Shown here one piece after another: positions 22,135 to 49,918 of a stretch of DNA of 64,000 nucleotides. The position numbers and the translations under genes are program-made. Origin of the DNA: an uncultured Ectothiorhodospiraceae bacterium (GTDB lineage Bacteria > Pseudomonadota > Gammaproteobacteria > UBA9214). The stretch is from assembly GCA_947259415.1 (NCBI GenBank), contig CAMYMI010000013.1, forward strand, positions 487 through 64,486. Direction: 5' to 3'. A model generated the notes under the pieces. That model had not been told where the DNA came from. It searched no databases and saw only the letters and a list, made by a program, of their open reading frames with translations. Numbering within the stretch: position 1 is the stretch's first letter; each line of letters begins with the position of its first letter.

Positions 22135-22755
22135 TTACCCTGTCATCTGTGAAGTCAGTTTTGCTGTCAGGTCAATCTGCGCGCAGACCAGTTCATACAG
22201 GGTACGATCGTCGAGTACTTCGTCTTTGGAGCACTTCTGGAGCAGGCCGGCAATCCGCGCATCGCGCGCGTCGAGCAAGTCGCCTAGATCCGTCTGATAG
22301 AGTTTCAACAGACTCGCCAGCCAGCGGCGCAGGACGTCCGGTTCTTCCGAAGGGTCAAGTGCATCAATTGCCGCCAGCAGGCTGTTGCGGTCACCCCAGT
22401 CGCTGCCCGTGACCCAGCGATTGGTGATAATCCAGCACAACGGCTGCCCTTCCAGATCCATGGCCAGTGCGGCCAGGTGTGTCCAGCCCTGTCCTTTGCG
22501 GGTAAACAGGTGAAAATGGCCATGTTCCCTGAAATCGGCATCAGCTACGGAATGACTGTGATAATAGCTCCGCCAGCCGTCTTTCCCGAATGCCAGCGCG
22601 GGTTGCGGGTACTTGCCACCCTGGACAAAAGTCGGTAGGTCCCGCAGCAGTTCCAGTACCGGGTTGCTGTGGTGTGCACCCATTTTCTGAATGCAGTCGA
22701 ACAACAGCGCCGCGGGCGGGCATTCGACGGTGCGATGCCTCGCTAGAGGCTGCAT
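22135..22755 (-). CDS. Hypothetical protein (last gene of the YeeE operon)
   Basis: 206 aa, His-rich 'HSHSVADADFREHGHFHLF'; start overlaps the upstream small gene by 13 bp. Confidence 0.45.
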   Translation of the reverse strand: MQPLARHRTVECPPAALLFDCIQKMGAHHSNPVLELLRDLPTFVQGGKYPQPALAFGKDGWRSYYHSHSVADADFREHGHFHLFTRKGQGWTHLAALAMDLEGQPLCWIITNRWVTGSDWGDRNSLLAAIDALDPSEEPDVLRRWLASLLKLYQTDLGDLLDARDARIAGLLQKCSKDEVLDDRTLYELVCAQIDLTAKLTSQMTG

Positions 22756-23012
22756 GGCGACTCGTCCTCGGTATTGTCCATATCGTCCAGCGAACAGGGA
22801 TTGTCATCCGTCGAACAATATGAGGCGTCCAGGTCACAGGGGTTTTCGTCTTCTTCGTCGATAATGACAACGGTTGTCTGGCTCCGGGACTGTTCACCGG
22901 GCTGCGCCGGCGCCGGCAGCCGGTGGCGGGTATGGTCTATGGCCACGGCGATCGCTGCGGTGCCCACAAAGGCTCCCATAATCCAGCGATTTCTGCGTCG
23001 AGCGTCTTTCAT
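22743..23012 (-). CDS. Small membrane-anchored acidic protein with three xPCxL repeats
   Basis: N-terminal hydrophobic anchor then 'DENPCDLDASYCSTDDNPCSLDDMDNTEDESPCSL'; 5 bp downstream of YeeE. Confidence 0.4.
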   Translation of the reverse strand: MKDARRRNRWIMGAFVGTAAIAVAIDHTRHRLPAPAQPGEQSRSQTTVVIIDEEDENPCDLDASYCSTDDNPCSLDDMDNTEDESPCSL

Positions 23013-23017
23013 GTGTC

Positions 23018-24211
23018 TTAGTTTACCGCTTTATCAAGACCAAAGCCCTGTCTGAGATATACCCCGATGATGCTGCCGGTGAACCCGCTGGCGAGCCACA
23101 GCCAGCCGTGCAGGCTGCCGGACACCAGGCCGGCCAGCAGACCGCCGATATTGCAGCCGAACGCCAGGCGTGCGCCGTAACCCAGTAACAGGCCTCCGGC
23201 AATGGCGGTGAGAATATCGCGCCTCCTGATCGAATCGGCGGGCGCGAAACGGCCAGCCAGGCCAGCGGCCGCGATGGCACCCAGTATAATGCCGATATCC
23301 ATGATTGACGTGGCGTCGGCAAGCACACTGCGCCCCAGTGCGGTGGCAGCATAGCCGTGGCTCCAATAGCTCCAGCTGCTGATATCACCGCCGAGTGCGG
23401 CCCACAGTTTGGTACCCCAGAGACCAAAGGCGAAGGTGATCGACCAGGGATGATGGGCAACCAGCAGCGTTGCCAGGCTGAGTAGGGCCAGTCCCACTGC
23501 ACCCCATAACACCGGCCACGGCCCGAACACCAGTCGCTGTAACGGGGAGCGCTGCCCTCGGCACCGGGTCAGGGGTTCGTGGTTGCCAAAGCGCCGCCGT
23601 TCGGCGTCGGTGGCCAATTGATAGAGGGTCGCCAATAGCAGTAATTGCAGGGCAAGCGCCAGGGGCCAGCCAAAGCCCTGGAGCAAAGAAACCTGACCCA
23701 GGGAGGGCAGCTGTGCCCACCAGGGCAAATGGACCGAGCCGATAACCGAGCCGATAACAAAAAAGACGAGTGTAACCAGCATTTTTACATGCCCGCCACC
23801 GACGGTGAACAGGGTGCCCGAACCGCAGCCGCCACCCAGCTGCATACCGATGCCGAACAGAAAAGCGCCTACCAGAACAGATATTCCCACCGGTGCGTAG
23901 GCGCCGTGCAGTGATAACCCGGGTACCGCGCCCGAGAGTAACGGAAAAAAGGCCAGCGACACCAGGGCCGCCAGCAACAGCTGGGCGCGGATCGCCGCAC
24001 TACGCCGCTCCCGTATAAAGAGCCGCCAGCCGCCGGCAAATCCAAAGGCGGCGTGAAACAGGCTAAAACCCAGACCGCTGCCGATCAGCAGCAGCAGTAC
24101 CTGGCGGTCTGAGACATCGTGATTGATAAATAACGCCAGGGCCATGATGCCAAGCAAGGCAGGGAAGACCACCCCGGGTTCGTAGCGGGTGACACTTGCT
24201 GGTGCCGACAT
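23018..24211 (-). CDS. YeeE/YedE family inner-membrane transporter (thiosulfate/sulfur-compound uptake family)
   Basis: Duplicated 'GGGCGSG' / 'AFGCNIGG' motifs characteristic of YeeE/YedE. Confidence 0.8.
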   Translation of the reverse strand: MSAPASVTRYEPGVVFPALLGIMALALFINHDVSDRQVLLLLIGSGLGFSLFHAAFGFAGGWRLFIRERRSAAIRAQLLLAALVSLAFFPLLSGAVPGLSLHGAYAPVGISVLVGAFLFGIGMQLGGGCGSGTLFTVGGGHVKMLVTLVFFVIGSVIGSVHLPWWAQLPSLGQVSLLQGFGWPLALALQLLLLATLYQLATDAERRRFGNHEPLTRCRGQRSPLQRLVFGPWPVLWGAVGLALLSLATLLVAHHPWSITFAFGLWGTKLWAALGGDISSWSYWSHGYAATALGRSVLADATSIMDIGIILGAIAAAGLAGRFAPADSIRRRDILTAIAGGLLLGYGARLAFGCNIGGLLAGLVSGSLHGWLWLASGFTGSIIGVYLRQGFGLDKAVN

Positions 24212-25349: not shown

Positions 25350-25716
25350 TCCGGGTCTTCTACCCGATACAGGCAAGAACACAAATTGCAGGTTCTCGGC
25401 AAGGCCAGCCCCGACGCAGGTTGGGCCGCTTCTTCAGGAACACGGTATCCCGGAGAGGTTATCCCTGAATTCTCAAAGTGGAGGCAATGTGCTTTCGCGA
25501 CTGGCGAAACCGTTTATTTACAGATATCGTACTGAACACGGTGATACGAACCGTTATTCAGCAGATCCGCAACAATCTGGTTATATTATCAGCCTCGTGG
25601 TTGCGGTCTCCAGTCTCAGCTACAACACTTGCGCAATGAATTGACTGAGGAAAAATTGAAAAATAAGATTTTTCGGATTTGAAGCCCTGAAAAATCTCGG
25701 TGAGCTGCAGACAATT

Positions 25717-25968
25717 GTGGATTTTGGACATTACGAAAAGAACACTGAAATGGGGAGTCCTATCGAGTGCTGGGGTCGAGTCCTGCTAATACGTGATCTG
25801 GCCGATATTATTAAAGGATCCGTGCCTGACAAGGCACAGAAATTATTTGATACATGGCGGTCCAATTGGGAAGGAATAGGAAATGACAAGTCCAGGGTCG
25901 AGCGCATTACAGCTGAAATAATCGAAACCCGCCAGTCGTTTCAAAGCGTGATAAACAGACTTGATTAG
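25717..25968 (+). CDS. Hypothetical small protein
   Basis: 83-aa ORF in a low-GC segment. Confidence 0.25.
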   Translation: MDFGHYEKNTEMGSPIECWGRVLLIRDLADIIKGSVPDKAQKLFDTWRSNWEGIGNDKSRVERITAEIIETRQSFQSVINRLD

Positions 25969-26113
25969 TATTTTCTTATCCTTTGAATTTCTCCCAAAAT
26001 CAAATCCGTTCACACCAATGCATTGCCTGAAGGACCTTTATCCTGCCACATTCATGCCGGTGGTGACCATCATCCAGGCAAGTGCACCCGAGTGGTGTTT
26101 ATGAGTATCCGTC

Positions 26114-26842
26114 ATGAACGATGATCTGCAGCTCGCGGCGCGTGTGCATTACAGCTTTCTGCCAGAACATTACGAAGATGACTGGCTGAATGTGGCGACC
26201 CATTTAATCCCGAAGTCGGTACTGGGGGGTGATTATTGCAGTGTCGTCCCGCTTGGTGAGCAGCGGTTTGCAGCGTGTATCTGTGATGCCGTTGGCCATG
26301 GAGTTGCCTCAGCCCTGTATGCCGCGCGTATTAACACCTTTGTATTGACAAATATCTTGCAGGGCCACGACCCTTGTGAACTGATCAGCGCGCTGAACGA
26401 GTTTCTGTGTCGCCGGCTCGTCGAATCAGGCATGTATGCCTCGTTCTTTGTTGTCTTTCTGGATACCGAATCTATGGAAATCCAGTTTGCCGGTGCCGGG
26501 CATCCCGCTGCGCTGCATCTGTCTACAGAAGAAAACCGGATTAACTGGCTGGATTCAGAAACCACTCTGCTTGGGTTCGAGCACCCGTTACCTGTGGAAT
26601 GTCCCCTGAAAACCAGCCCAATCAGTTCTGGTGACAGGATACTCTTGTATACAGACGGTCTTATAGAGACAAGAAACAGCCGCGGAGTAGAATTCGGCCA
26701 TGCAGGTGTGGAGCGCTATGTGAGTGCAAGTTCACAGGAAGACAACAGGGATTTTGTTAATGGTTTATGTTCTGAGATCCATGACTATAGCAATGGCGCA
26801 ATAAAAGACGACATACTGTGTCTGAGTCTCAAGGTGAAGTAG
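26114..26842 (+). CDS. Stand-alone PP2C/SpoIIE-type serine phosphatase
   Basis: 'GGDYCSV...ICDAVGHGVASAL...GAGHPAAL...LYTDGLIE' PP2C motifs. Confidence 0.7.
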   Translation: MNDDLQLAARVHYSFLPEHYEDDWLNVATHLIPKSVLGGDYCSVVPLGEQRFAACICDAVGHGVASALYAARINTFVLTNILQGHDPCELISALNEFLCRRLVESGMYASFFVVFLDTESMEIQFAGAGHPAALHLSTEENRINWLDSETTLLGFEHPLPVECPLKTSPISSGDRILLYTDGLIETRNSRGVEFGHAGVERYVSASSQEDNRDFVNGLCSEIHDYSNGAIKDDILCLSLKVK

Positions 26843-27173
26843 ACAACGGTATCATCCTTTTTCAATAGTCTGCAGTGATTTTGCACTGTCTCGCTTGTTG
26901 ATGTTTCTGATGGTTGACAGGAGTCCAGATCAAGCCGGTCAAAAGGCGATACCCTGCCCACCGTTAGGGATTTCAGTTAGATAGGGCCTCACCCGGGCAT
27001 TGAAGCGGTCCCGGCAGTTCGTGTAAGAGTATCACTCGCTTGCCTGCGAGGCCTTAAATCAGGCGCTTTATGACGATATCGCCGGGTTTGCAGGGCAGTG
27101 CTTCACAGATGGCATTCTGTTAATGACACCGAACATAAAATAGAATCATGCTGCAGGTAATGTCAGGCAGACA

Positions 27174-28493
27174 GTGATGGGCGATATCCCTCCAAAAGGT
27201 GAAAGACGCGACCCGGCGCGGCAGGATCGCCGCTCGAGTCCCGCTTTGTCCGGGCATTTGGAGTTGCTGGCCAGGATGAGCGGCCACTTTGCCGTCACAA
27301 CTGACATCGAGGAGACCATTCAGAAGGCCCTGGACCTGATCATCCGCTACGTGGGTGCTGAAGCCGGTTCGCTGTTTCTGCTGGAAGCGGATACCGGGAA
27401 ACTGGTTTGCAAGGCCAGTGTCGGTCAGGTTGATATCTGCGGTCTCATGCTCGACGCAGGTCAGGGGATCGTGGGACAGTGTGTATCCGGGAATTGCAGT
27501 CGCATCGTGCGCGAAGTCAGCGAGGATCCGGATTTTGAACCATCGGTGGATGATCTGACCGGTTTTCACACCCGTTCAATACTGTGTACGCCCATGACCG
27601 TTCATGATGCGATGCTGGGTGCCATCGAGCTGGTCAACAAGAAGGATGAAAGCGGGCTGTTCTCCGAACCGGATCTCATGATGCTGCAAACGCTGGCATC
27701 TGCGGCGGCCCTGGCCATCCGCAATGCGCGCATGACAGAGGAACTGGTCAGTCAGGAGCGTCTCAACCGGGAGATCGAGCTCGCCATCGAAATGCAGCGC
27801 AGCCTGTTACCGGTGGCGCAGCCGGCGCCATTCCCGGTGTCGGGGATCAATCTGCCGGTCTACGAGGTGTCCGGTGATTTTTACGATTTCTTCGAAATCG
27901 ACGATGGACGCATCTATTTCAGTCTGGGTGACGTCTCCGGAAAGGGCATGGATGCCGCGTTGCTTATGTCCAAGACCTCCAGCCTGTTTCGCTGCCTGGG
28001 TAAAACCATACACATGCCCGCTGTCCTGCTGGCAACCATCAACAGGGAGCTTTGTGAGACCGCGATCCATGGCATGTTTGTCACCATGGCCTGTGGCATC
28101 CTTGACCCCGCAAGCGGCAAGGTGCAGCTGGCCAATGCCGGCCACGAGCCAGCCCTGCTGCATGATTGCGATGGAAAATTCAGGGCAATGCCTGCCAGTG
28201 CCCCGCCGCTTGGCATACTATATCCTGAAACAGGAGAAACCGGCATTCGGGATGAGACATTCAGGCTCAATGGTGGCACACTCTATATCTTTTCAGATGG
28301 CGTAACCGAGGGTTTTCTCGAAAACGGTGACCCGCTTGGAGTTGATGGCCTTAAAAAGATCATCCGTGAACAGTCTGGAGAAACGGTTACAAGACGTATT
28401 GAGTCCGTGATTTCACGCCTGAGCAGTGCCGGGCAAAAGCGTCGCGACGACATTACTATCCTGGCCGTGGAAGATAGCAGTCAGAATCGATGA
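27174..28493 (+). CDS. GAF-domain PP2C phosphatase (RsbU/RsbP-like partner-switching phosphatase)
   Basis: N-terminal GAF ('GAEAGSLFLLEADTGKLVCKASVG...GIVGQC') plus C-terminal SpoIIE/PP2C ('SGDFYDFF...GDVSGKGMDAALLMS...ANAGHEPALL...FSDGVTE'). Confidence 0.8.
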   Translation: MMGDIPPKGERRDPARQDRRSSPALSGHLELLARMSGHFAVTTDIEETIQKALDLIIRYVGAEAGSLFLLEADTGKLVCKASVGQVDICGLMLDAGQGIVGQCVSGNCSRIVREVSEDPDFEPSVDDLTGFHTRSILCTPMTVHDAMLGAIELVNKKDESGLFSEPDLMMLQTLASAAALAIRNARMTEELVSQERLNREIELAIEMQRSLLPVAQPAPFPVSGINLPVYEVSGDFYDFFEIDDGRIYFSLGDVSGKGMDAALLMSKTSSLFRCLGKTIHMPAVLLATINRELCETAIHGMFVTMACGILDPASGKVQLANAGHEPALLHDCDGKFRAMPASAPPLGILYPETGETGIRDETFRLNGGTLYIFSDGVTEGFLENGDPLGVDGLKKIIREQSGETVTRRIESVISRLSSAGQKRRDDITILAVEDSSQNR

Positions 28494-28936
28494 GCGATTA
28501 CCAGAGCAAGGAGTCCGAACCGTCGGTCCGGGTCACATTTCCTGCGCAGGCAGGGGAGCTGCAGCGGGTTCGCGAGGTGGTACGCAGGACCTGCGTCGAA
28601 TGCGGGTGTAGTGCCGCCCTGGCCAACGACCTGGTGATCGCTGTCGGCGAGGCCTGCCAGAATGTCGTAAGGCATGCCTATAGGGATGTGGACGATGGCG
28701 AGGCAACCCTTGAAATCTTCTGTCGGGACGGTGCAGTGGAGTTTCGTCTGCATGATAACGCCCCCCCGATGGACAACGAGAAACTCAAGCCGGTATGGCC
28801 GAAGAAAGTCCAGGCCGGGGGACTGGGTGTCTGCCTCATTCACGACATCATGGATGAGGTGGAACATCTTCCTCTTCCGTCAGGTCACGGAAATCTGCTA
28901 CGAATGGTAAAATCCTTCAAGAGAGATCCAGAATGA
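28490..28936 (+). CDS. RsbW/SpoIIAB-type anti-sigma-factor serine kinase (HATPase_c)
   Basis: N-box 'GEACQNVVRHAY', G-box 'GGLGVCLI'; ATGA overlap with the upstream phosphatase. Confidence 0.8.
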   Translation: MSDYQSKESEPSVRVTFPAQAGELQRVREVVRRTCVECGCSAALANDLVIAVGEACQNVVRHAYRDVDDGEATLEIFCRDGAVEFRLHDNAPPMDNEKLKPVWPKKVQAGGLGVCLIHDIMDEVEHLPLPSGHGNLLRMVKSFKRDPE

Positions 28937-29265
28937 CTCATGAGATTATTGAAAAGCAGGGATCGTCGGTGGTCGTGCTGAGGGGAGATGTCGATCTCTC
29001 AAGCTCGCCTGAAGCGCGCAAACTGTTGCTCAGCTGCATCGATGGTAGTGACAGGGTGCTGGTCGACCTCTCGGGTGTGACCTATATCGACAGCTCCGGG
29101 ATCGCGTCGCTGGTAGAGGCCCTGCAGGTATCAAAAAAGAATGGTAAGCAGTTTGCGCTCGCCGCGGCCAGTGAGCCGACTCGACGGGTTTTGGAACTGG
29201 CGCGCCTCGATAAGGTGTTCAAGATGCATGCAACAGTTGAGGAGGGGATCAATGCAGAGGGATAG
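28933..29265 (+). CDS. STAS-domain anti-sigma-factor antagonist (SpoIIAA/RsbV-like, phosphorylatable)
   Basis: 'DLSGVTYIDSSGIASLVEAL' with the DSSG phospho-acceptor motif; ATGA overlap with the kinase. Confidence 0.8.
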   Translation: MTHEIIEKQGSSVVVLRGDVDLSSSPEARKLLLSCIDGSDRVLVDLSGVTYIDSSGIASLVEALQVSKKNGKQFALAAASEPTRRVLELARLDKVFKMHATVEEGINAEG

Positions 29266-29343
29266 AGGCTGCCTACCTTGTTACACATTGCGGTTGTATA
29301 CCTCAAGCTATAAACGCACATCGACTGTAACACCATCCTGATT

Positions 29344-30135
29344 TTGCGTAGATTCATAGAAAAAATCGGCCGGGAGTTTCTCTACCTGCTGGAAAACATC
29401 GGCAGGATGGGATTCTTTTTCTCGACGACCCTGGTCACCATCCTGAAACCGCCTTATACACCGTACCCGGTTGTCCGGCAGATCTATTTCATCGGGGCCC
29501 GCTCGGTGATTGTCATCCTCGTCACCGGCCTGTTCACCGGCATGGTGCTGGGCCTGCAGGGATACCACAACCTCAAAAAGTTTGGTTCCGAGGAGTTGCT
29601 GGGCTCGGCCGTGGCACTCAGCCTCATACAGGAGCTTGGCCCCGTGTTGACGGCACTCATGGTCATTGGCCGTGCCGGCTCTGCCATCTGTGCGGAAATC
29701 GGGATTATGCGTAATTCCGAGCAGATCGATGCACTGGAGTGCATGGCGATCGACCCCTACAAGTTCCTTATTGCCCCCAAGTTTATTGCCGCACTGATCT
29801 CTCTGCCAGCGCTGACCTTCATCTTCAATGTGTTGGGCATTCTGGGTGGTTATCTCGCCGGCGTGGTGTTTCTCGATATCGCCAGTGGCGCCTATTTTCA
29901 GGGCATGTACGATAGCGTTGAGTGGGCGGACATCCGCCTGTGTTTTATCAAGTCCATGATTTTCGGTGTGCTTATCGTCTGGATTGCGTCCTTCAAGGGC
30001 TATTTCCTGCACCTCAACCGGACCGGGGTATTCGGTGCCGAAGGGGTAAGCCGTGTCACCACCGATGCCGTTGTGCTTGCATCGGTGACCATTCTGGTAT
30101 GGGATTACCTGATCGGGTCATTGATACTCTCATGA
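29344..30135 (+). CDS. mlaE: Phospholipid ABC transporter permease MlaE
   Basis: MlaE-family permease signature ('IYFIGARSVIVILVTGLFTGMVLGLQGY', 'LGPVLTALMVIGRAGSAI'); 78 bp after the STAS gene. Confidence 0.85.
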   Translation: MRRFIEKIGREFLYLLENIGRMGFFFSTTLVTILKPPYTPYPVVRQIYFIGARSVIVILVTGLFTGMVLGLQGYHNLKKFGSEELLGSAVALSLIQELGPVLTALMVIGRAGSAICAEIGIMRNSEQIDALECMAIDPYKFLIAPKFIAALISLPALTFIFNVLGILGGYLAGVVFLDIASGAYFQGMYDSVEWADIRLCFIKSMIFGVLIVWIASFKGYFLHLNRTGVFGAEGVSRVTTDAVVLASVTILVWDYLIGSLILS

Positions 30136-30181
30136 AGAGTTTAGTCAGCAGGACATAATATTTGAAAATACGGGGTTTCTT

Positions 30182-30628
30182 ATGAACAAGATGAATCTCG
30201 AAATGATTGTTGGGCTCTTTATGCTGGCAGGATTTGCCAGTTTCTCCTACATTGCCATCAAGATGGGCGATCTCAGCTTATTCAATGAAGAATCCTATCC
30301 AGTCAGCGCCCGGTTTATCTCCATCAGTGGGCTCAAGGAAGGTGCGGCAGTCGAACTGGCCGGCGTCAAGGTCGGAACGGTATCCGGTATCGAGCTTGAC
30401 GGGGGAGAGTACGAGGCCGTTGTCCAGCTTGACATCAACAAGCAGGTCAGGCTCCAGGAAGACAGCATTGCCTCGATACGTACATCCGGCATTATCGGTG
30501 ATCGCTTTATCAAGCTCACCCCCGGCGGATCGGAAGATTACCTGGGGGCAGGTGATGAAATTGCGGAAACCGAGTCGTCGATCAGTCTGGAGGAATTGGT
30601 CAGCAAGTATATATTCAAAAGCGAATAA
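30182..30628 (+). CDS. mlaD: MCE-domain periplasmic lipid-binding protein MlaD
   Basis: N-terminal TM anchor then MCE domain 'GLKEGAAVELAGVKVGTVSGIEL'. Confidence 0.8.
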   Translation: MNKMNLEMIVGLFMLAGFASFSYIAIKMGDLSLFNEESYPVSARFISISGLKEGAAVELAGVKVGTVSGIELDGGEYEAVVQLDINKQVRLQEDSIASIRTSGIIGDRFIKLTPGGSEDYLGAGDEIAETESSISLEELVSKYIFKSE

Positions 30629-30650
30629 CACCCGAAAAAGGGGGAAGCCC

Positions 30651-31415
30651 GTGAAAAAGCTACTACTCCTGTTTTTTCTTCTAGCCTGCCCGCCACTGCT
30701 CATGGCCCAGGACATTGATCCCGTCTCCTCGGGCAGCACAGCGGCCCCCGGGAAAGCGGATACACAGAAAGAGGAAGAAGAGCTGTTTGTCTTTGACGAG
30801 GAAGAAACGCTCGTCGTCTCCGACCCGCTGCAGCCGATCAACCGCGGGATCTTCTGGTTCAATGACAAGCTGTATTTCTATCTGCTCAAACCCGTGGCCA
30901 GGGGATATCGATGGCTTGCACCGGAGCCGATAAGGATCGGGGTGCAGAATTTCTTCTCCAACCTGGCAACACCCATCCGACTGGTAAATTCAGGCCTGCA
31001 GCTCAAGTTCGGGGACGCCGGCAATGAGCTGACCCGGTTTGTCGTTAACTCCACCCTCGGTATCGGTGGACTGTTCGATCCGGCAAAAGAGCATTTCAAT
31101 ATCAGGAAGAAAGACGAGGATACCGGCCAGACACTGGGTCATTACGGCCTGGGACCCGGTATCTACATCGTGTTGCCAGCACTCGGACCTTCCAATATCC
31201 GGGACGGCATCGGCCTGCTGGCGGATTCCTATATGGATCTGACCCGCTATGCGTGGGAGAATCAGGACTATTATGGGGCCAAGATCTTCGATGTCATTAA
31301 CGATCTGTCGATCGACAAGGACACCTATGAAGGGATCAAAAAGGATGCTCTCGATCCTTACCTTTTCATTCGTGATGCCTATATGCAGTATCGCCAGCAC
31401 AAGGTCGAGAACTAG
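30651..31415 (+). CDS. mlaA: Outer-membrane lipoprotein MlaA (VacJ family)
   Basis: GTG start after RBS; lipobox 'LLACP'; 'INRGIFWFNDKLYFYLLKPVARGYRWLAPEPIRIGVQNFFSNLATPIRLVNSGLQ' is the VacJ core. Confidence 0.75.
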   Translation: MKKLLLLFFLLACPPLLMAQDIDPVSSGSTAAPGKADTQKEEEELFVFDEEETLVVSDPLQPINRGIFWFNDKLYFYLLKPVARGYRWLAPEPIRIGVQNFFSNLATPIRLVNSGLQLKFGDAGNELTRFVVNSTLGIGGLFDPAKEHFNIRKKDEDTGQTLGHYGLGPGIYIVLPALGPSNIRDGIGLLADSYMDLTRYAWENQDYYGAKIFDVINDLSIDKDTYEGIKKDALDPYLFIRDAYMQYRQHKVEN

Positions 31416-32033
31416 GTGAAAGAGGTAATGAAAATGTTGAAACGTCTATCCTTGATAATCATGTTGAGTGCCGTCATGGCAATGCCGGGACTGGCGTCCG
31501 CAGATCCCGCACCCATCGAATCCGTGCGTATAGCCGTGAATGCCATTCTTGACATACTCAAGAACCAGGAGCTCGATAAAGCGGTAAAGCGCGACAGGAT
31601 GCGTGAAGTCATCGACGCGCGTTTCGATTTTCGTGCCATGTCCCAGAGCACGCTGGCGACCAACTGGAAAAAGGCATCAAAGGATGAGCAACAGCAATTC
31701 GTAAAACTCTTCGGCAAGCTCATTCAGAATACCTATATCGGACAGGTAGAGGCCTATACCAACGAAGAAGTGACCTATCCATCCGAAAAGATAAAGGGTA
31801 AACGTGCCGTTGTGGATACCCTGATCATCACCAGCACCGCGGAAATCCCTGTAAATTACAAGTTATACCTGAAGAAAAACCAATGGCGGGTCTATGACGT
31901 GATCATCGAGGGGGTCAGTCTGATCAGCAACTACCGCAGCACCTATCAGGAGATTGTGAAAAAGGAGGGTTTCTCCGGCTTGCTCGCCAGGATGGAGGCG
32001 AAGATCGACGAGATAAGCAATCCTCCTTCCTGA
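31416..32033 (+). CDS. mlaC: Periplasmic phospholipid-binding protein MlaC (Ttg2D family)
   Basis: Signal peptide plus the MlaC fold signature ('NWKKASKDEQQQFVKLFGKLIQNTY', 'WRVYDVIIEGVSLISNYRSTY'). Confidence 0.8.
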   Translation: MKEVMKMLKRLSLIIMLSAVMAMPGLASADPAPIESVRIAVNAILDILKNQELDKAVKRDRMREVIDARFDFRAMSQSTLATNWKKASKDEQQQFVKLFGKLIQNTYIGQVEAYTNEEVTYPSEKIKGKRAVVDTLIITSTAEIPVNYKLYLKKNQWRVYDVIIEGVSLISNYRSTYQEIVKKEGFSGLLARMEAKIDEISNPPS

Positions 32034-32048
32034 CGCGACTCGTCGCTC

Positions 32049-32867
32049 CTAGAAATACCGGTTGTCGCGTGCGGCAGTCAGGCGTTTCAGATATTCCTCT
32101 GCATTGACGGCTTCATCTCTGGGCCGGCGATTGAGCATGTCCTGAATCGCCTCGTTGTCGCTGTTACGGACCTCGTCGACCGTGCCGGTCATCAGTACTT
32201 GCCCGTCACCCAGCACCGTGATCCTGTCGGCGATCTTGAATGCGCTTTCCAGTTCATGTGTAACCACCACGATGGTGACCTTCATCGCAGCCTTGAGTCG
32301 CAGTATCAGCTCATCCAGCTCGGCTGAGACAACGGGATCCAGGCCCGCAGAGGGTTCGTCGAAGAATAACAGGCTCGGGTCCATGATGATGGAACGTGCC
32401 AGGGAGGCCCTCTTGAGCATGCCGCCGGAGAGTTCGGAGGGCATCAGGTCCTCGAATCCCGCCAGGTTGACGACCTCGAGCTTCATGCGGGTCATAATGC
32501 GTATGGTGTTCTCATCCAGCCTGGTATGTATCCGCAGTGGCAACTCGATATTCTCCGCAACGCTCATCGAACCCAGCAGTGCGCCACCCTGAAAGGCGAC
32601 GCCCATCTTGCGCCGCAGTTTGTAGAGCTCTCTAGTCCCGAGCTGGGTAATATCCTGCCCCAGGATGTGGATGCTTCCGGAAGTCGGTTTGTTCAGCCCC
32701 AGCAGATTGCGCATGAGTGTGGTTTTGCCTGAACCGCTCCCGCCCATGATGACCATGATCTCTCCGGCGTGGATATCGAGATCCACGCCCTTGAGAATCT
32801 CCCGGTCTCCGTAGTGGGTGACGAGCTTCCCGATTTCGATGACATTTTCAGGTGCTGTGTCTGGCAT
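32049..32867 (-). CDS. mlaF: ABC transporter ATP-binding protein MlaF
   Basis: Walker A 'GGSGSGKTT', signature 'LSGGMLKRASLAR', Walker B 'LLFFDEPSAGLDP'; convergent with mlaC and downstream of the CPA2 gene. Confidence 0.85.
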   Translation of the reverse strand: MPDTAPENVIEIGKLVTHYGDREILKGVDLDIHAGEIMVIMGGSGSGKTTLMRNLLGLNKPTSGSIHILGQDITQLGTRELYKLRRKMGVAFQGGALLGSMSVAENIELPLRIHTRLDENTIRIMTRMKLEVVNLAGFEDLMPSELSGGMLKRASLARSIIMDPSLLFFDEPSAGLDPVVSAELDELILRLKAAMKVTIVVVTHELESAFKIADRITVLGDGQVLMTGTVDEVRNSDNEAIQDMLNRRPRDEAVNAEEYLKRLTAARDNRYF

Positions 32868-32980
32868 GCGTATCTGCTCCGGGGTATTTTATACAGAACC
32901 GGGAATTCTTTATTACTGGCCTATTGTGGACCGAATGCCGGTTGGTCTACAAGGGCGTCTCGCCCGCCCGAGCGGCCTGC

Positions 32981-34840
32981 TTACATGATTTCCCTGCGCG
33001 TATCCCATTCACCATACAGGGTCTCGATCTCCGCACGGTGGTCACTGATTTCCCCGCTTAGCGCCTTTTCAATTACCGTTTCAATGGCGCTGGCGGCTTC
33101 GATACGCTGCAGGAATACATAGTCACAGCCTGCTTCATAGAGTTTTTTGCTTTCCGCAAGCTCGATGGCATGGGCGATGATGATCGCATCAGGATTAATG
33201 TGCCGCACAGCCTCGACGATTTTCTCGTTCGTTGTACCCTTCAGGACATCATCCGGAATCGTTGACACGATAATTTTACCCTTGTCGACACCTGTATGAA
33301 GCAGGGTTTCGGGATTGCTAAGATCCCCGTATTTCACGACGGGGCCATGGGCCGCAATCTTTTGATGGATGTTTACATTGAAATCCACTATCAGTGTTTT
33401 TTCGAGTAACTCGGGATGATGTCTCTCAAGCTCATATAACAATGAAGATGTGATTCGATGAAAACCTAGCAGAACCAGGCTATAAGACTCCTGGTCAGCA
33501 GTTTCTCTTGTTGTCGGCGCCTTGAACCCGATTTTCTCGAGAAGTCCCGAAAGCCTGTCGTGCAGGTTATCGGCCTGCTGAAAAAGTATCGGTGTCAGCA
33601 GGGCAGTGATGACAAACGCGAAAATGATCGCACTGTTCAGTTCGGCCGAGATGTGGCCAAGCTGCACGCCGATGAAACCAATCACCAGGCTGAATTCGGA
33701 TATCTGGGCAAGCCGGACGGATGTAACCATGGAATTGCGGCGGTCGAGCCCGGTGAAATAGAACAATGGAAAGAAAATGAGGAATCGGGCCAGCAATGAG
33801 CCCACCGCAAACAAGACAGCCAGCAGCAGCACATCGAGGCCATTCGGCATCGGAATGCTCATGCCGAGACCGACGAAGAACAGTGTGATAAAAAAGTCTT
33901 TTACAACCCCCACCTTGCCGACGATTTCGGTACTGTAAGGGAGATTGGCGATCGTGGCGCCCGCGATGAGTGCTCCCATCGCCGGGCCCACGCTCAAGTG
34001 CAGGTTGAACTTAAACAACCACTCCGTGAATAGATCAAGGTAAATACCAGTCAGCACAACGATGAAACACCAGGCAATCGAGGCCACAAAAATAACTTCC
34101 GGCTTTTTGGCTACCCATTTAAAGCCGATCGGTATCACGTACTTGGCAAACTGTCCTGCAATGAATGCAAGCAGTCCGATGCCTGCAAAAGACAGCAGGA
34201 TCGGGCTGAGTTCCGGTGCACTAAAATTAGGCTGTATGGCGATCACGCCAATAGCCCATATATCCTGGAAGATCAGCAGACCCAGCACGATGCGCCCGAC
34301 TTCGGTATCCAGCTGAAAGGTTTCCTGAAAGAGCTTTACAACCAGCAACGTCGAGGACGCTGCCATGATAAAGCCGATATACAGTGGCACGTAGGTGCCG
34401 GACAAGACTTCTCCGCCAAGCCCGAGCCAGAGCAGTAGCTTGACGAACAGGAACCCGAACAGTGTACACAGCGGGTATTGAAGCAGTCCGGAAACAATCA
34501 GAATCCGCCCGCTTGCGCGCAACTTGCGAATATCGATTTCAAGTCCGATCAGATACAACAGTAATATCAAACCCAGCTCAGATATTGTTTCGATATTACC
34601 GGGGTCGGTTACCAGTCCCGCGCCAATGGGGCCAACCACTATACCGGCGATTAAAAAGGCGGCGATTACGGGGATCCTGAGCTTGACACAGGCAATTGCC
34701 AGCGTGCCTGCCAGCAACACACATACACCGATATCCTGCACCAGGGAAGGCAGTGCACCACTTGCGGCCAGCACCGAGGCAGGGGAAATTGCCAGCACCC
34801 CGCCAACACCGAGTAGACGACCGAGCGATCTTCCAGTCAT
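32981..34840 (-). CDS. CPA2-family monovalent cation:proton antiporter with C-terminal RCK (TrkA-N) domain, Kef-type
   Basis: 12-13 TM Na_H_Exchanger core plus C-terminal Rossmann 'LVLLGFHRITSSLLYEL...IVDFNVNIHQKIAAHGPVVKYGDLSNPETLLHTGV'. Confidence 0.8.
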   Translation of the reverse strand: MTGRSLGRLLGVGGVLAISPASVLAASGALPSLVQDIGVCVLLAGTLAIACVKLRIPVIAAFLIAGIVVGPIGAGLVTDPGNIETISELGLILLLYLIGLEIDIRKLRASGRILIVSGLLQYPLCTLFGFLFVKLLLWLGLGGEVLSGTYVPLYIGFIMAASSTLLVVKLFQETFQLDTEVGRIVLGLLIFQDIWAIGVIAIQPNFSAPELSPILLSFAGIGLLAFIAGQFAKYVIPIGFKWVAKKPEVIFVASIAWCFIVVLTGIYLDLFTEWLFKFNLHLSVGPAMGALIAGATIANLPYSTEIVGKVGVVKDFFITLFFVGLGMSIPMPNGLDVLLLAVLFAVGSLLARFLIFFPLFYFTGLDRRNSMVTSVRLAQISEFSLVIGFIGVQLGHISAELNSAIIFAFVITALLTPILFQQADNLHDRLSGLLEKIGFKAPTTRETADQESYSLVLLGFHRITSSLLYELERHHPELLEKTLIVDFNVNIHQKIAAHGPVVKYGDLSNPETLLHTGVDKGKIIVSTIPDDVLKGTTNEKIVEAVRHINPDAIIIAHAIELAESKKLYEAGCDYVFLQRIEAASAIETVIEKALSGEISDHRAEIETLYGEWDTRREIM

Positions 34841-34904
34841 ATCTCTGCAGTCCTGGTTATATCCGGGTCAGAGAGCAATTCTCTCTGATATTAAACACTG
34901 CTGT

Positions 34905-35105
34905 TTAAACTCCCTCTCCTTTATGCCCGTTTTTTGGGTGCACCGGGAGAGGGTTGGGGAGAGGGGATCAAATAGTGATAACTTTCTTGTTTCACACCCC
35001 CTCATCCTAGTCGCTTCCGGCATCCCGCCTCCCGCGACACTGTGCATCCATGCACATCGTCATTCTCCCTGTACATCCAACAAACGGGCATAAAGGAGAG
35101 GGGGG
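34905..35105. repeat. REP/BIME-like element with 21-bp terminal inverted repeats (MITE-like)
   Basis: TIRs 'tccctctcctttatgcccgtt' (34910-34930) and 'aacgggcataaaggagagggg' (35082-35102) flank a core containing 'gggagagggttggggagagggg'. Confidence 0.6.
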
Positions 35106-35145
35106 ATTTGGCAAAGCAATGGCACTGACCCCATTTTCTCCAGAA

Positions 35146-36603
35146 TCATTTCCCCAGTGTAATCACCCGTATCAGATCGGTTCCACCGGCTTGCTGATGC
35201 TGCCCAGCGGTTGATATCACAATATCACCTGCCTTTACGTATCCCAATGCTTCCGCCTGTTCGATTCCGAAGGCGAGGCGTGCGCGGTCTGTGGGCTCGC
35301 CACTGTAGAGGATTGGGATGACACCCCAGTTCATTGACAGTTTACGTGCAACCTTCACGGAAGATGTAATCGCGAGAATCGGAATCTCAGGGCGGTATTT
35401 CGAGATCAGCCGCGAGGTAAAACCTGTCTCGGTCAGGCTGATAATCGCCGCCGCCTTGAGGTTCGCCGACATGCTGACGGCAGCCTGGCCGACGGTTTCG
35501 GTCACAATATCCGTGGGATGCGGGTTGAATCGCTGTAAATAGCCGTATTCTCCCAATGAGGATTCGGCGCGCCGTGCGATGTTGGCCATGGTACTCACCG
35601 CCTCTACGGGGTATTTGCCGACGGCGGTTTCGCCGGAGAGCATAACGGCCGATGTTCCGTCCAGAATGGCATTGGCAACATCGCTGGCCTCGGCGCGGGT
35701 CGGCTTCGGATTGTGTTCCATGGAAGCCAGCATCTGGGTGGCGGTAATGACAGGCTTGCCGTTGGTCACCGTCGAACGGATGATGTGTTTCTGGGTGGCA
35801 GGCACGTCAGCCAATGGCAACTCCACACCCATGTCGCCGCGTGCCACCATGATGCCATTGGCCGCCCTCACAATGTCTTCCAGATTCTCAACGCCGGCCT
35901 TGTTCTCGATCTTGGCGATGATTGGGATGTTGACGCCCTTTTCGACAAGTATTTCCCGCATCTTGTAGATATCGTTCGCAGTCTGAATGAAGGAAGCTGC
36001 GATGTAATCGACATCGTTCTCGGCGGCAAAGCCCAGTTCCCTTATGACATCCTCACGGTTTTCAGGGCTGACAGCGCTAAGCGCAAGCCGGGTATTAGGC
36101 AGGTTCACGCTCTTGCTGTTGCCCAGCCAGCCACCATGGATGACACGGCAAGAGATGGCGTTGCCGCTGACTCCCGTGACTTCCAGTTCGATGGCGCCGT
36201 CGTCTAGCAGGATCGGTGTGCCGGCATGGACCTCCTCCTGCAGTTTTCTGTAGGTTATTGCGACACCATCGGCATTACCGGTGCGCTCTTCGGTGTACAG
36301 AGTAAAGCTGGCACCCGGTAGCAGTTCAACCGTACCGCCCTCCAGCAGGCCGGTGCGGATCTCGATACCCCGGGTATCGATCATGATGGCTATGTTTGTG
36401 CCAACTTGTTCGGATGTATCGCGCAGGAGTTTGATCTGCTTTTTGTGGTCGGCAAGGTTGCCGTGGGAGAGGTTGAGGCGCGCCACGTTCATCCCGGCCC
36501 TGATCATTGCGGCGAGCTTGTCCGCCGTATTGCAGGCCGGACCAATCGTGGCAACGATCTTGGTTTTACGTTGTATCGGTAATCCGTTTGTTGTGTTTTT
36601 CAT
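35146..36603 (-). CDS. pyk: Pyruvate kinase
   Basis: 'KTKIVATIGPA', 'NVARLNLSHG', 'IMIDTRGIEIRTG' and the 'ARGDMGVE' active-site block; start trimmed to Met 'MKNTTNG'. Confidence 0.9.
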   Translation of the reverse strand: MKNTTNGLPIQRKTKIVATIGPACNTADKLAAMIRAGMNVARLNLSHGNLADHKKQIKLLRDTSEQVGTNIAIMIDTRGIEIRTGLLEGGTVELLPGASFTLYTEERTGNADGVAITYRKLQEEVHAGTPILLDDGAIELEVTGVSGNAISCRVIHGGWLGNSKSVNLPNTRLALSAVSPENREDVIRELGFAAENDVDYIAASFIQTANDIYKMREILVEKGVNIPIIAKIENKAGVENLEDIVRAANGIMVARGDMGVELPLADVPATQKHIIRSTVTNGKPVITATQMLASMEHNPKPTRAEASDVANAILDGTSAVMLSGETAVGKYPVEAVSTMANIARRAESSLGEYGYLQRFNPHPTDIVTETVGQAAVSMSANLKAAAIISLTETGFTSRLISKYRPEIPILAITSSVKVARKLSMNWGVIPILYSGEPTDRARLAFGIEQAEALGYVKAGDIVISTAGQHQQAGGTDLIRVITLGK

Positions 36604-36871: not shown

Positions 36872-39223
36872 CTATTTCGACGTCATCACGAAGACGCCGT
36901 TCCAGTCGTCGCCGGGCGGGTGGTTCTTCATGTAGTCGCAGCGCTCGATGTAGGTACGCGACAGTTTATCGTTCGGGTGCAGCTTGAGGGCGTCGTTGAA
37001 GGCGGCCGTGGCCTTGTCCCAGTTGCCGTTACGGTACTGCGTCAGGCCGTCCTTGAAATGAAGGACCGTTTCCATCAGGTTGGGAAAGCTCTCCTCGCTG
37101 TGGTGGTCGAGGATCTCGTAGATGGACACCGGTTCGGTCTTGCCCTTGACAATCACCCGGTCGATTTCGCGGATGCGGTAGGTGCCGTGCAGCTTGCGGT
37201 AGGTGTTCTCGCTGGTCAGGATGCGCGCCGAGTACTGTTTGCAGGCACTCTCCAGGCGTGCCGCGAGGTTCACGCCGTCACCGATAATGGTGTAGTCCAT
37301 GCGCTTGGGCGAGCCGATGTTGCCCGAGACCACCACGTCGGTGTTGAGCCCGATGCCCATGTCCACCGGGTGTTTGCCCAGAGCCAGCCGTTCCCGGTTC
37401 CAGTCATCGAGTTTCCTGATCATAGCGATGGCGGCACGCACGGCGCGGTCCTCGTCGTCATCGTGGGCGATCGGCATACCGAAGGCCGCCATGATGGCAT
37501 CGCCGATGAACTTGTCGAGCATGCCTTCCTCGCGCTGGATGCAGTCGACCATGAGGGTGAAATACTCGTTCAGCAGGGCGACGGTGCCCTGGGCGCCGAG
37601 TTCCTCGGTCAGCGTGGTGAAGCCGCGGATATCGGAGAACAGAATGGTCGCCGGGGTGCTCTTGCCGCCGAGGATATCGCCACCACCCTCCAGGACCTGG
37701 TCGGCCAGGCCGGGATCCATGTAGCGCGCCATGGTCGACTTGACCCGCTTTTCGGTGCTGATGTCCTCGATCATGATCAGGGTGCCGAGCGAGTGCTCGT
37801 CGGAGGCGATCAGCGGCAGCACGGTCAGGTTGACCGAGACCTTGTTGTTGTTGAATTCGAGTTCGGCGTCCACCGAGATGTCCGGTACGCGGGTCTCGGC
37901 CACGCGCAGGATCTTGTCCCGGACCCAGGCATTGGCGCCGGTGAGGAACTCGTCGGCAGAGCGGCCGATGATGTCCTGGCTGTCGAGCTGCATAATGCGC
38001 GAGCCGGCGTCATTGCAGGTCACGATGTTGGCATCCTCGTCCAGGGTGAACACCCCGTTCGACATGCTCTGCAGCATGCTCTCGTTGTAGTTCTTCATGT
38101 TCTCGACGTCGTTGAACAGCTTGGCGTTCTCGAGGCCGATGGAGACCTGTGCCGTGAACGCGCGCAGGCGGGATTCGTCCTCCCCGGTAAAGGCGCCGCC
38201 GCGCTTGTTGAGCACCTGGGTGACGCCGATGGTCTTGCCGTCCTTGTTGACCACAGGAACGCACAGGATGGAGCGTGTGAAAAAGCCGGTCTTGCGGTCG
38301 AATTCCGGGTTGAAGCGCAGGTCGGCATAGGCATAGGGGATGTTCACCGACTGGCCACTGGTGAACACGGTGCCGGCAATACCCTGGTCATTGGGCAGGC
38401 GGATCTGGGTGGCGTCCAGGCCCACGCCGGTCTGCGACCATAACTCGCCGGACTTCTCGTCGTTGATGAACAGGGTCGAGCGTTCGGCATTGAGCATGCG
38501 CGTGGCCTCGGTCATCACCTTCTGCAGCACCACGGCGAGGTCGATCTCGGAGGTGACGTCCGAGACGATGTCGAGGAACTCCAGTTCCTGGGTGTGGGAC
38601 CTGTGCATGCGCTCGGCGAACTGGACGCTGTGCAGGGTGATCGAGGCCTGCAGGGTCAGCGCCTGCAATACCTCCAGGTTTTCCTCGGTGAACTCGCCGT
38701 GCTGCTTGTTCAGTGATTGTGCCACGCCGATGATGTCACCCTTGACGGTCCGGATCGGTGTGCACAGCACGTTGCGGGTATGGTAGCCGGTTTTTTCATC
38801 CACGGACGGGCTGAAGCGTTCATCGGAGTAGGCGTCATGGATGACCATGCTCTCGCCATTGGTGAACACATGGCCGGCGATCCCCACGGTGTTCAGTATC
38901 CGGATATCACGTCGGATGTCGCCCAGAGCCACCCGAGAGTACAGCTCGCCGGTCTCGACATCATTCAGGAACAAGGTGGAGCGATCGGCCCCGGTCTCCC
39001 GGCTGATGATCGTCACCAGGGTCTCGAGCGCCTCATCCAGCGTGTCCATGGCGCCCATTTGATGATTGACATCGACCAGCAGCTCGGCCATGCGCAGACG
39101 CTTGCCGATGACGTCATGCGCGCGGTCCGGGCCACGCCGTTCGACAAAGTCGATGACCGAACTATCCGGCATGGTGCGGCTCCAACGCTGCGCCCGGGGT
39201 GTCGTCGGAAGGTTGTCCCGCAC
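36872..39223 (-). CDS. GAF-GAF-PAS class III adenylate/guanylate cyclase
   Basis: Two GAF domains, a PAS, and cyclase motifs 'FSDIRGFTTL', 'FIGDAIMAAFG', 'GDGVNLAARLE'; alternative start 'MPDSS' at 39172. Confidence 0.85.
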   Translation of the reverse strand: MRDNLPTTPRAQRWSRTMPDSSVIDFVERRGPDRAHDVIGKRLRMAELLVDVNHQMGAMDTLDEALETLVTIISRETGADRSTLFLNDVETGELYSRVALGDIRRDIRILNTVGIAGHVFTNGESMVIHDAYSDERFSPSVDEKTGYHTRNVLCTPIRTVKGDIIGVAQSLNKQHGEFTEENLEVLQALTLQASITLHSVQFAERMHRSHTQELEFLDIVSDVTSEIDLAVVLQKVMTEATRMLNAERSTLFINDEKSGELWSQTGVGLDATQIRLPNDQGIAGTVFTSGQSVNIPYAYADLRFNPEFDRKTGFFTRSILCVPVVNKDGKTIGVTQVLNKRGGAFTGEDESRLRAFTAQVSIGLENAKLFNDVENMKNYNESMLQSMSNGVFTLDEDANIVTCNDAGSRIMQLDSQDIIGRSADEFLTGANAWVRDKILRVAETRVPDISVDAELEFNNNKVSVNLTVLPLIASDEHSLGTLIMIEDISTEKRVKSTMARYMDPGLADQVLEGGGDILGGKSTPATILFSDIRGFTTLTEELGAQGTVALLNEYFTLMVDCIQREEGMLDKFIGDAIMAAFGMPIAHDDDEDRAVRAAIAMIRKLDDWNRERLALGKHPVDMGIGLNTDVVVSGNIGSPKRMDYTIIGDGVNLAARLESACKQYSARILTSENTYRKLHGTYRIREIDRVIVKGKTEPVSIYEILDHHSEESFPNLMETVLHFKDGLTQYRNGNWDKATAAFNDALKLHPNDKLSRTYIERCDYMKNHPPGDDWNGVFVMTSK

Positions 39224-41878: not shown

Positions 41879-42204
41879 GGAGGCTTTCCCCGCTGGTTTC
41901 CAGTCATTATTGAATCACCCCTGTGTAACGCTGCCTTGCGAATCTTGAACCGGGTGGCCCCGATCGGTTGTTTCTTCCGGGACGTGAAACAGGAGTGAAC
42001 GCACCTCCCGCTACTTATAGCGGATCAATTACAGAAATACAAATCGGTCATGCAGGTGAATCGGTCTCGTCAGGCCGGCGTGCAGCGACATGCGCCGGTG
42101 TGTGCATCTGCCGTCTTGCGGGCACATTGTCCATCCCCCCATACCGGATACACGCCACCCCGGGATGGCATACACGCTTGTCAGATCGTGGGTTCTTGTT
42201 GATC

Positions 42205-44623: not shown

Positions 44624-44683
44624 GGCGGCACGCACCATAAAGTGGCGGCACGCACCATAAAGTGGCGGTACGCACCACAAATT
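44624..44683. promoter_or_regulatory. Three tandem 20-bp direct repeats in the divergent promoter region between the CHASE2 cyclase and the RTX/TPS operon
   Basis: 'ggcggcacgcaccataaagt' x2 then 'ggcggtacgcaccacaaatt'. Confidence 0.6.
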
Positions 44684-49916: not shown

Positions 49917-49918
49917 CT

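Follow-up and report, generated by a model that had tools for sequence, protein, structure and literature searches.

The closest described transporter to the one considered here is the Escherichia coli MlaFEDB complex (6XBD, 6XGY; PMC7367683), an MCE-type ABC transporter in which MlaE, MlaF and MlaD work with MlaC and MlaA and with MlaB, a small single-domain STAS protein from the same locus. The helical face of MlaB binds the helical subdomain of MlaF, with Thr52 of MlaB at the centre of the interface, and a Thr52Glu substitution weakens this binding (PMC7367683). Without MlaB, MlaF is not retained on MlaE, and a C-terminal extension of MlaF places Tyr261, Leu265 and Leu266 in the groove between MlaB and the neighbouring MlaF (PMC7367683). 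Phosphoregulation of MlaB was left open by the authors of the structure, who knew of no kinase for it (PMC7367683). Here, an Mla-type locus is described in which a STAS protein of the phosphorylatable type is encoded with a kinase and a sensor phosphatase directly upstream of mlaE. The locus lies at positions 26114-34840 of a 64,000-nucleotide stretch (the window) of contig CAMYMI010000013.1, from an uncultured Ectothiorhodospiraceae bacterium.

Phosphorylatable STAS proteins are known from partner-switching modules. In the Bacillus subtilis modules RsbU/RsbP-RsbV-RsbW-sigB and SpoIIE-SpoIIAA-SpoIIAB-sigF, as in the window, overlapping genes encode a DSSG-type STAS protein together with a GHKL Ser kinase and a PP2C phosphatase that has a sensor at its N-terminus, and proteins of this kind are the best sequence and structure matches of the STAS protein and kinase reported here. 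Downstream of the module, however, the window has mlaE and mlaF in place and no sigma factor. The B. subtilis modules also differ from the family to which the window locus belongs in that phosphatase and kinase are mostly a single polypeptide in the latter (58 of 82 loci), and the RsbW, SpoIIAA and SpoIIAB equivalog models all fail on the window proteins.

STAS proteins of some other partner switches have targets that are not sigma factors. The Shewanella CrsR-CrsA and Pseudomonas HsbR-HsbA systems join sensor, PP2C and kinase/anti-sigma domains in one protein with a separate STAS protein, and HsbA, whose targets include non-sigma proteins, has non-kinase partners that depend on its phosphorylation state (PMC6482189). 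In contrast to the window module, the sensor of CrsR and HsbR is a receiver domain rather than a GAF domain, and the targets are RpoS, FlgM and HsbD rather than a transporter (PMC6482189). The Anabaena HenR-All4160 system likewise combines phosphatase, kinase and STAS protein with a non-sigma output, and phosphorylation inactivates the STAS protein, but the target of All4160 is an exopolysaccharide biosynthesis enzyme and the gene families and context are different (bioRxiv 10.64898/2026.04.08.717354).

A link between STAS domains and MlaE has been described in Brucella abortus, where the chimeric Mla-Pqi system MpcEFDA combines MlaE and MlaF with a long MCE protein and a lipoprotein of the PqiC type (PMC12436622). 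MpcE is an MlaE with an N-terminal STAS domain (PMC12436622). This fusion has the same order as the STAS gene and mlaE in the window and is counted here as a precedent. It differs from the window in that the Brucella STAS domain is part of the MlaE polypeptide and has no reported kinase or phosphatase, whereas the window has a separate phosphorylatable STAS protein with its enzymes. The Mpc-like gene set recurs in relatives of the window locus outside its own clade; within that clade, the Mpc-like membrane part is replaced by canonical mlaE, mlaD, mlaA and mlaC.

Compared with MlaFEDB, the STAS gene of the window stands upstream of mlaE, whereas the MlaB gene follows mlaC. Its product is of the RsbV/SpoIIAA type, with a DSSG motif and a fourth helix, and is accompanied by a dedicated kinase and one or two phosphatases, while no kinase is known for MlaB. 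The window MlaF is 36-38% identical to that of E. coli and is encoded on the opposite strand. Shared features include a Ser or Thr at the start of STAS helix 2 (Ser54 in the window, Thr52 in MlaB) and an MlaF C-terminal extension with Tyr and Leu at aligned positions.

With a probability of about 60%, the STAS protein of the window is a phospho-gated analogue of MlaB, that is, an Mla-type transporter subunit that would be the substrate of its own kinase and phosphatase. This reading draws on the conserved gene neighbourhood, the STAS-mlaE spacing, the mosaic make-up of the locus, the alignment of Ser54 with Thr52 and the MlaF C-terminal motif. The unphosphorylated STAS protein would bind the MlaF helical subdomain, as MlaB does in E. 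coli, and would stabilise or activate the MlaF dimer on MlaE, turning the transporter on. Phosphorylation by the kinase of Ser54, predicted to lie in the STAS-MlaF interface, would release the STAS protein; MlaF would then be released or inactivated and the transporter turned off. The GAF-PP2C phosphatase would remove the phosphate upon ligand binding to its GAF domain; a cyclic nucleotide is a possible ligand. One face of the STAS protein would bind either the kinase or MlaF, so that an ABC ATPase would take the role that the sigma factor has in the classical partner switch. By this or another route, the module is likely to regulate the transporter.

Gene calls were taken from the open reading frame (ORF) list of the window and from Pfam and NCBIfam profile scans. 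The features of the locus are as follows.

26114-26842, + strand: stand-alone PP2C (SpoIIE-family) Ser phosphatase, 242 amino acids (Pfam SpoIIE/PP2C, 1.2e-35)
27174-28493, + strand: GAF-PP2C sensor phosphatase, 439 amino acids (Pfam GAF, 9e-15; SpoIIE, 2e-38)
28490-28936, + strand: RsbW/SpoIIAB-type Ser kinase, 148 amino acids (Pfam HATPase_c_2, 7.6e-26)
28933-29265, + strand: single-domain STAS protein, 110 amino acids (Pfam STAS, 1.2e-19)
29089-29100, + strand: DSSG motif, STAS residues 53-56, with Ser54 the predicted phospho-acceptor
29344-30135, + strand: MlaE permease of the canonical Mla type, 263 amino acids (Pfam MlaE, 2.8e-75)
30182-30628, + strand: MlaD, a short single-MCE protein, 148 amino acids (TIGR04430 OM_asym_MlaD, 161 bits)
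30651-31415, + strand: MlaA (VacJ) outer-membrane lipoprotein (Pfam MlaA, 4.9e-70)
31416-32033, + strand: MlaC periplasmic lipid-binding protein (Pfam MlaC, 1.1e-46)
32049-32867, - strand: MlaF-like ABC ATPase (Pfam ABC_tran; best NCBIfam match MlaF)
32052-32147, - strand: MlaF C-terminal extension, residues 241-272, with the motif LNRR...(D/E)YLxRLT
32981-34840, - strand: Kef-type CPA2 antiporter (Pfam)

The GAF-PP2C, kinase and STAS genes are translationally coupled and stand directly upstream of mlaE. ATGA overlaps join phosphatase to kinase (28490-28493) and kinase to STAS gene (28933-28936), and 78 nucleotides separate the STAS stop codon from mlaE. The mlaC and mlaF genes are convergent, with 15 nucleotides between their stop codons. 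This layout had been proposed in an earlier note on this DNA, and the ORF list, the Pfam matches and the junctions read in the sequence agree with it throughout: gene order and coordinates, both kinase overlaps, the 78-bp spacing, the second PP2C gene just upstream, mlaA between mlaD and mlaC, and mlaF on the opposite strand. The same note had seen no sigma factor gene nearby and a single STAS gene; a Pfam scan of most large non-overlapping ORFs of at least 100 amino acids across the 64 kb likewise turned up neither a sigma factor nor a further STAS gene. The locus holds every Mla component except a canonical MlaB, which leaves the STAS gene as the sole candidate for the MlaB role.

Two start codons merit comment. 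The mlaE gene begins with TTG in the window and with ATG at the aligned position in all seven relatives aligned, and the mlaA start was placed at a GTG preceded by the ribosome-binding site AAGGGGGAAG and followed by a signal peptide with the lipobox LLAC. Signals outside the genes were few. In an alignment, the STAS-mlaE spacer was conserved only among close relatives; promoter and terminator sites predicted across 25400-35200 were no more numerous than in shuffled sequence; and Rfam and tRNA scans of the window gave no match. The same holds for the 331-nucleotide non-coding gap that separates the small PP2C gene from the GAF-PP2C gene (26843-27173): Rfam gave no match there, and promoter and terminator signals did not rise above background.

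The arrangement is widespread. When one genome from each of 185,579 species was scanned using two peptide patterns for STAS, at least 554 relatives of the STAS protein were recovered; thousands of close relatives were found in metagenomes. The best 80 of the at least 554 genome loci and five metagenome loci were analysed as a set of 85. All of the best 80 come from metagenome-assembled genomes, labelled Gammaproteobacteria, Rhodospirillales and other Alphaproteobacteria, Deltaproteobacteria/Myxococcota and Marinimicrobia, although these labels may be imprecise. The cassette is also present on complete chromosomes of this kind, namely CP070821.1 (mosaic type), OZ245869.1, OZ271842.1 and CP070734.1. 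No cultured representative appeared among the named matches, which included relatives of the fused phosphatase-kinase (3,922 at E <= 1e-30); all were metagenome-assembled genomes. Unbiased clustering of all flanking ORFs in the 85 loci returned only six conserved families, followed at a distance by the next commonest neighbour.

STAS family: 84 of 85 loci
GAF-PP2C(-kinase), upstream of the STAS gene: 82 of 85 loci
MlaE, downstream of the STAS gene: 81 of 85 loci
MlaF: 77 of 85 loci
MCE protein of about 330 amino acids (Pfam MlaD-domain): 61 of 85 loci
Lipoprotein of about 205 amino acids (Pfam ABC_trans_aux, PqiC-like): 54 of 85 loci
Next commonest neighbour: 21 of 85 loci

The adjacency of STAS switch and transporter is far beyond chance. 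Searches with the window proteins (tblastn) found the order GAF-PP2C, kinase, STAS, MlaE in practically every sufficiently long locus, and divergent STAS representatives from a library of 1.84 billion proteins keep the same gene order. Phosphatase and kinase form one polypeptide in 58 of 82 loci, and the STAS-mlaE spacing lies between -38 and +44 nucleotides in 64 of 83. No sigma factor was a conserved neighbour in the 85 loci. Three long contigs carry the same block as the window, with GAF-PP2C(-kinase), STAS, mlaE, mlaD, mlaA, mlaC and a convergent mlaF between flanks that differ. The Kef gene was considered as part of the unit and rejected, having no conserved linkage to mlaF in relatives. 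The earlier note had supposed co-transcription of mlaF with the antiporter gene, but relatives have mazG upstream of mlaF, or a divergent gene.

The transporter itself provides a second line of evidence. MlaE and MlaD of the window pass their family models (237 bits against a cutoff of 212 for TIGR00056; 161 bits against 135 for TIGR04430), and MlaC and MlaA exceed their Pfam cutoffs by a wide margin. Window MlaE has 42% identity to its E. coli counterpart and 31% to the cassette-type MlaE of locus L067, while cassette MlaEs are about 56% identical among themselves. MlaC scores 109 bits to the hopanoid-associated HpnM against 47 bits to E. coli MlaC, both below the respective cutoffs. MlaF behaves differently. 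The gene named mlaF in the earlier note does not encode a canonical MlaF: the product reaches 205.6 bits against a cutoff of 441 for the NCBIfam MlaF equivalog NF008809, and its identity is 60-72% to the cassette MlaFs from other classes but 36-38% to E. coli MlaF. Outside the window clade, the transporter is Mpc-like, with MlaE, MlaF, a long MCE protein and a PqiC-like lipoprotein (seen, for example, in L067, L062 and L089). In place of this set, the window has the short MlaD with MlaA and MlaC.

From these scores and identities, the window clade (loci L001, L003 and L005-L014 together with the window, all with a canonical Mla transporter part) is a mosaic, combining the switch, STAS protein and MlaF of an Mpc-like cassette with canonical mlaE, mlaD, mlaA and mlaC. 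With a cassette-type MlaF beside a canonical MlaE and MlaD, the exchange concerned the membrane and periplasmic part, and MlaF was kept along with the phosphatase, kinase and STAS protein. This joint retention held although mlaF moved to the opposite strand. Retention of STAS protein and MlaF together is what would be expected if they form a co-adapted cytoplasmic unit like MlaF2B2, and the mosaic is the strongest argument that they do. In MlaFs of the cassette lineage, the segment of the helical subdomain is the most conserved part. The C-terminal motif LNRR...(D/E)YLxRLT is at least 80% conserved in 75 MlaFs, and in the alignment the Tyr and Leu of this motif correspond to Tyr261 and Leu265 of E. 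coli MlaF.

The enzymes of the module are recognisable members of their superfamilies. The kinase scores 91 bits against Pfam HATPase_c_2 (cutoff 27.4), and its best PDB match is B. subtilis RsbW (2.4e-8), but it fails the RsbW equivalog NF003144 (57.7 bits, cutoff 145) and the SpoIIAB equivalog TIGR01925 (31.5 bits, cutoff 135). Conservation across 83 sequences extends to its N-box EACQNxxRHAY and its G2 box PGGLG, and the G1 box is D-x-A-x-P family-wide in place of DxGxG. The kinase is likely to be catalytically active. Both PP2C proteins pass PF07228 (132.6 and 123.6 bits, cutoff 25) and have metal-binding motifs, namely GDVSGKG, SDGVTE and DDIT in the GAF-PP2C protein and DAVGHG, TDGLIE and DDIL in the small one. 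The GAF-PP2C protein is predicted to be the phosphatase of the phosphorylated STAS protein and the signal input of the module. The small PP2C has no sensor domain, is 22% identical to the PP2C domain of the GAF-PP2C protein, and is shared with no cassette loci other than L001 and L006, the closest relatives. Judged by this distribution, it is a lineage-specific accessory gene and a recent addition.

The kinase is also at the centre of the alternative that survives best, in which the kinase domain is itself the output and binds and inhibits, or else phosphorylates, MlaF or MlaE, much as an anti-sigma factor holds its sigma factor, while the dephosphorylated STAS protein only pulls the kinase off. 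The target would again be the transporter. This would follow the canonical logic of RsbW and SpoIIAB, which the RsbW-like kinase resembles, and in CrsR and HsbR, both fused REC-PP2C-kinase proteins, it is the kinase domain that binds the target directly (PMC6482189). The gene-neighbourhood data fit it equally well. It is nevertheless unlikely. Identity is lowest for the kinase (34-54%), the least conserved part of the module, and higher for the STAS protein (52-64%) and MlaF (60-72%). The kinase-output model also makes no use of the finding that the MlaF partner in E. coli is a STAS protein, MlaB, with the phospho-site in the interface (PMC7367683), nor of the STAS-MlaE fusion of Brucella (PMC12436622).

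The STAS protein is of the RsbV/SpoIIAA antagonist type and not a member of the MlaB family; it is a putative analogue of MlaB. It passes the anti-sigma factor antagonist model TIGR00377 (75.6 bits, cutoff 53.45) and Pfam PF01740 (70.5 bits, cutoff 22.6), and fails both the SpoIIAA equivalog TIGR02886 (40.9 bits, cutoff 114.75) and the MlaB model NF033618 mlaB_1 (27.6 bits, cutoff 90, over residues 42-94 only). The absence of a canonical mlaB from the locus, reported in the earlier note, is thereby confirmed. Among solved structures, the STAS protein is closest to the Thermotoga antagonist TM1442 (1e-18), with PDB chains of MlaB at E-values of 0.02-0.035. The AlphaFold2 model (predicted local distance difference test score 80) has four helices in the order b-b-a1-b-a2-b-a3-b-a4, which is the SpoIIAA/RsbV layout, and superposes with template-modelling (TM) scores of 0.86 on TM1442 and SpoIIAA and of 0.60 on MlaB (rank 32). 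The compact three-helix STAS fold of MlaB (6XBD, 6XGY) is thus replaced by one with a fourth helix.

These affinities could also suit an ordinary partner switch that acts on a distant sigma factor, such as RpoS, or on another distant target, and has no more than its transcript in common with the transporter. The antagonist model is passed by the STAS protein, whose nearest structural matches are TM1442, RsbV and SpoIIAA, and the fused sensor-PP2C-kinase architecture is that of CrsR and HsbR, which sequester RpoS (PMC6482189). Against such a switch, mlaE and mlaF adjoin the module in essentially all 85 loci, in several classes and with changing flanks, with no conserved sigma neighbour, and no sigma factor was found among the scanned ORFs of the 64-kb window. 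RpoS is largely confined to Beta- and Gammaproteobacteria, and many loci, being labelled Rhodospirillales, Myxococcota or Marinimicrobia, fall outside that range. The retention of a cassette-type MlaF in the mosaic clade would also be left unexplained. A distant target is improbable.

Returning to the phospho-gated MlaB analogue, its key residue is conserved. The DSSG motif, proposed as a phospho-acceptor in the earlier note, is invariant in 86 of 86 members of the STAS family, whose identity ranges from 52 to 92% across the 85 loci, and places a phosphorylatable Ser at the start of helix 2. A profile comparison with E. coli MlaB (probability 86%) aligns DSSG with DTGG and Ser54 with Thr52. 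The suggestion in the earlier note that the STAS protein serves as a phosphorylation-controlled MlaB finds support: comparative genomics speaks for a functional coupling, and the alignments with MlaB and with the SpoIIAA/RsbV families place Ser54 on Thr52 and the protein in the antagonist superfamily, but it is not a member of the MlaB family. A switch of inverted sign, in which the phosphorylated STAS protein binds and activates MlaF, the kinase is the on signal and GAF-PP2C the off signal, is hardly probable: the HsbA of Pseudomonas aeruginosa does bind some partners only when phosphorylated (PMC6482189), and the comparative data are silent on the direction of regulation, but the phosphomimetic Thr52Glu lowers MlaF binding of E. 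coli MlaB and the residue lies in the interface (PMC7367683).

Several observations weigh against a phospho-gated MlaB analogue. The STAS protein is of the RsbV/SpoIIAA type with a fourth helix, scores far under the MlaB cutoff and reaches a TM score of only 0.60 to MlaB. Its conserved surfaces are those that any anti-sigma antagonist needs for its kinase, and they do not discriminate between the models. The D-x-A-x-P G1 box makes catalysis by the kinase an assumption. In E. coli, MlaB Thr52Ala is non-functional, which according to the authors is hard to square with simple phosphoregulation (PMC7367683). Finally, none of the 150 highest-ranking STAS family representatives in the 1.84-billion-protein library is a STAS-MlaE fusion, which leaves the Brucella paper as the sole source of the fusion argument.

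The fusions that this search of 1.84 billion representatives did find are kinase-STAS, tandem-STAS and TLC/MFS-STAS proteins. Kinase-STAS fusions include P0129 and P0241, and tandem STAS proteins occur too. In P0154 (830 amino acids) and P0182 (844 amino acids), close relatives of the STAS protein form the C-terminal domains of TLC/MFS-type transporters, a further link of RsbV-type STAS domains to transporters.

Full-text literature searches found no paper linking a kinase, a PP2C phosphatase or a partner switch to Mla/MCE transporters, and Mla, ABC transporters and lipid all go unmentioned in a 2021 review of STAS-only proteins. To our knowledge, no Mla or MCE genes adjoin the CrsR-CrsA or HsbR-HsbA systems. 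The earlier note had regarded the arrangement as undescribed, and no publication describing it was found; it is, however, a widespread cassette and not peculiar to this genome. Partner switches with non-sigma outputs are already known, as in HsbA (PMC6482189) and All4160 (bioRxiv 10.64898/2026.04.08.717354), and what would be new is a regulatory layer on a known transporter family. This family is probably switched on and off by STAS phosphorylation, which for E. coli MlaB has only been speculated.

The regulation of lipid traffic between the two bacterial membranes is largely unknown, and the cassette makes the question testable. With STAS subunit, kinase and phosphatase encoded alongside the transporter, it is a natural test system for which few recombinant proteins are needed. 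If the proposed mechanism is true, partner switching would gain a new output, an ABC transporter instead of a sigma factor or enzyme. Canonical MlaB, whose Thr52 is unexplained, would then count as a degenerate relative of switches of this kind. The full proposal, in which a large MCE/Mla family of bacteria that are so far all uncultured is gated post-translationally through a GAF-PP2C phosphatase and a Ser kinase dedicated to the STAS subunit of the transporter, provides the first partner switch acting on an ABC ATPase and has MlaB as a degenerate relative, could equally well hold or fail. Present annotations such as 'RsbU', 'SpoIIE family phosphatase' and 'anti-sigma B factor antagonist' hide the link to lipid transport.

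The signal that reaches the module may also be approached by comparison. In the PDB, the GAF part most resembles the GAF domains of the cyclic GMP phosphodiesterases PDE5 and PDE2 and of the Anabaena cyclase CyaB2. In 11 of the 85 loci, a class III nucleotide cyclase stands directly beside the cassette on the same strand. The cyclase match is just downstream of the cassette in nine of these (L034, L065, L055, L059, L063, L075, L085, L037 and L079) and upstream of GAF-PP2C in the other two (L019 and L032). Both downstream cyclases that were scanned (L034:13684-15930 and L065:13693-16014) are CHASE2-cyclases that start right after the lipoprotein gene. The likeness to phosphodiesterase and CyaB2 GAF domains, together with the cassette-linked cyclases, suggests a cyclic-nucleotide input, which is a lead and not a result. 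For some members of the family, the CHASE2 cyclase of the same operon may supply a cyclic nucleotide as the input. The GAF sensor and the operon-linked CHASE2 cyclase of one clade suggest a route by which envelope signals could tune lipid transport.

Genes related to cyclic nucleotides also occur in the window at distances of 4-23 kb from the Mla locus. These encode a GAF-GAF-PAS class III cyclase (36872-39223, - strand), a CHASE2 class III cyclase (42205-44178, - strand) and a CRP-family regulator that binds cyclic nucleotide monophosphates (55439-56080, + strand). The window CHASE2 cyclase was considered as an orthologue of the operon-linked one and rejected, as the two are 28% identical and belong to different gene clusters.

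Other parts of the window are occupied by unrelated genes. A cluster at 41165-54325 resembles a distinct surface or signalling system, with DUF928 and the CHASE2-cyclase, an RTX-repeat protein (45019-46893), a TPS-domain exoprotein (46863-49916), the ShlB/POTRA transporter of this exoprotein (49853-51730) and a CHAT-TPR protein (51968-54325). At 11669-13306 (- strand), a protein of 545 amino acids combines a PycTM (Pycsar effector transmembrane) domain with DUF3616. The region 22135-24211 (- strand) contains a YeeE/YedE-type sulphur transporter gene (23018-24211) adjoining a DUF6969 gene, and cytochrome c and c' genes are found at 9655-11137. The sulphur transporter and the cytochrome genes would fit a sulphur-oxidising lifestyle of the uncultured gammaproteobacterial host.

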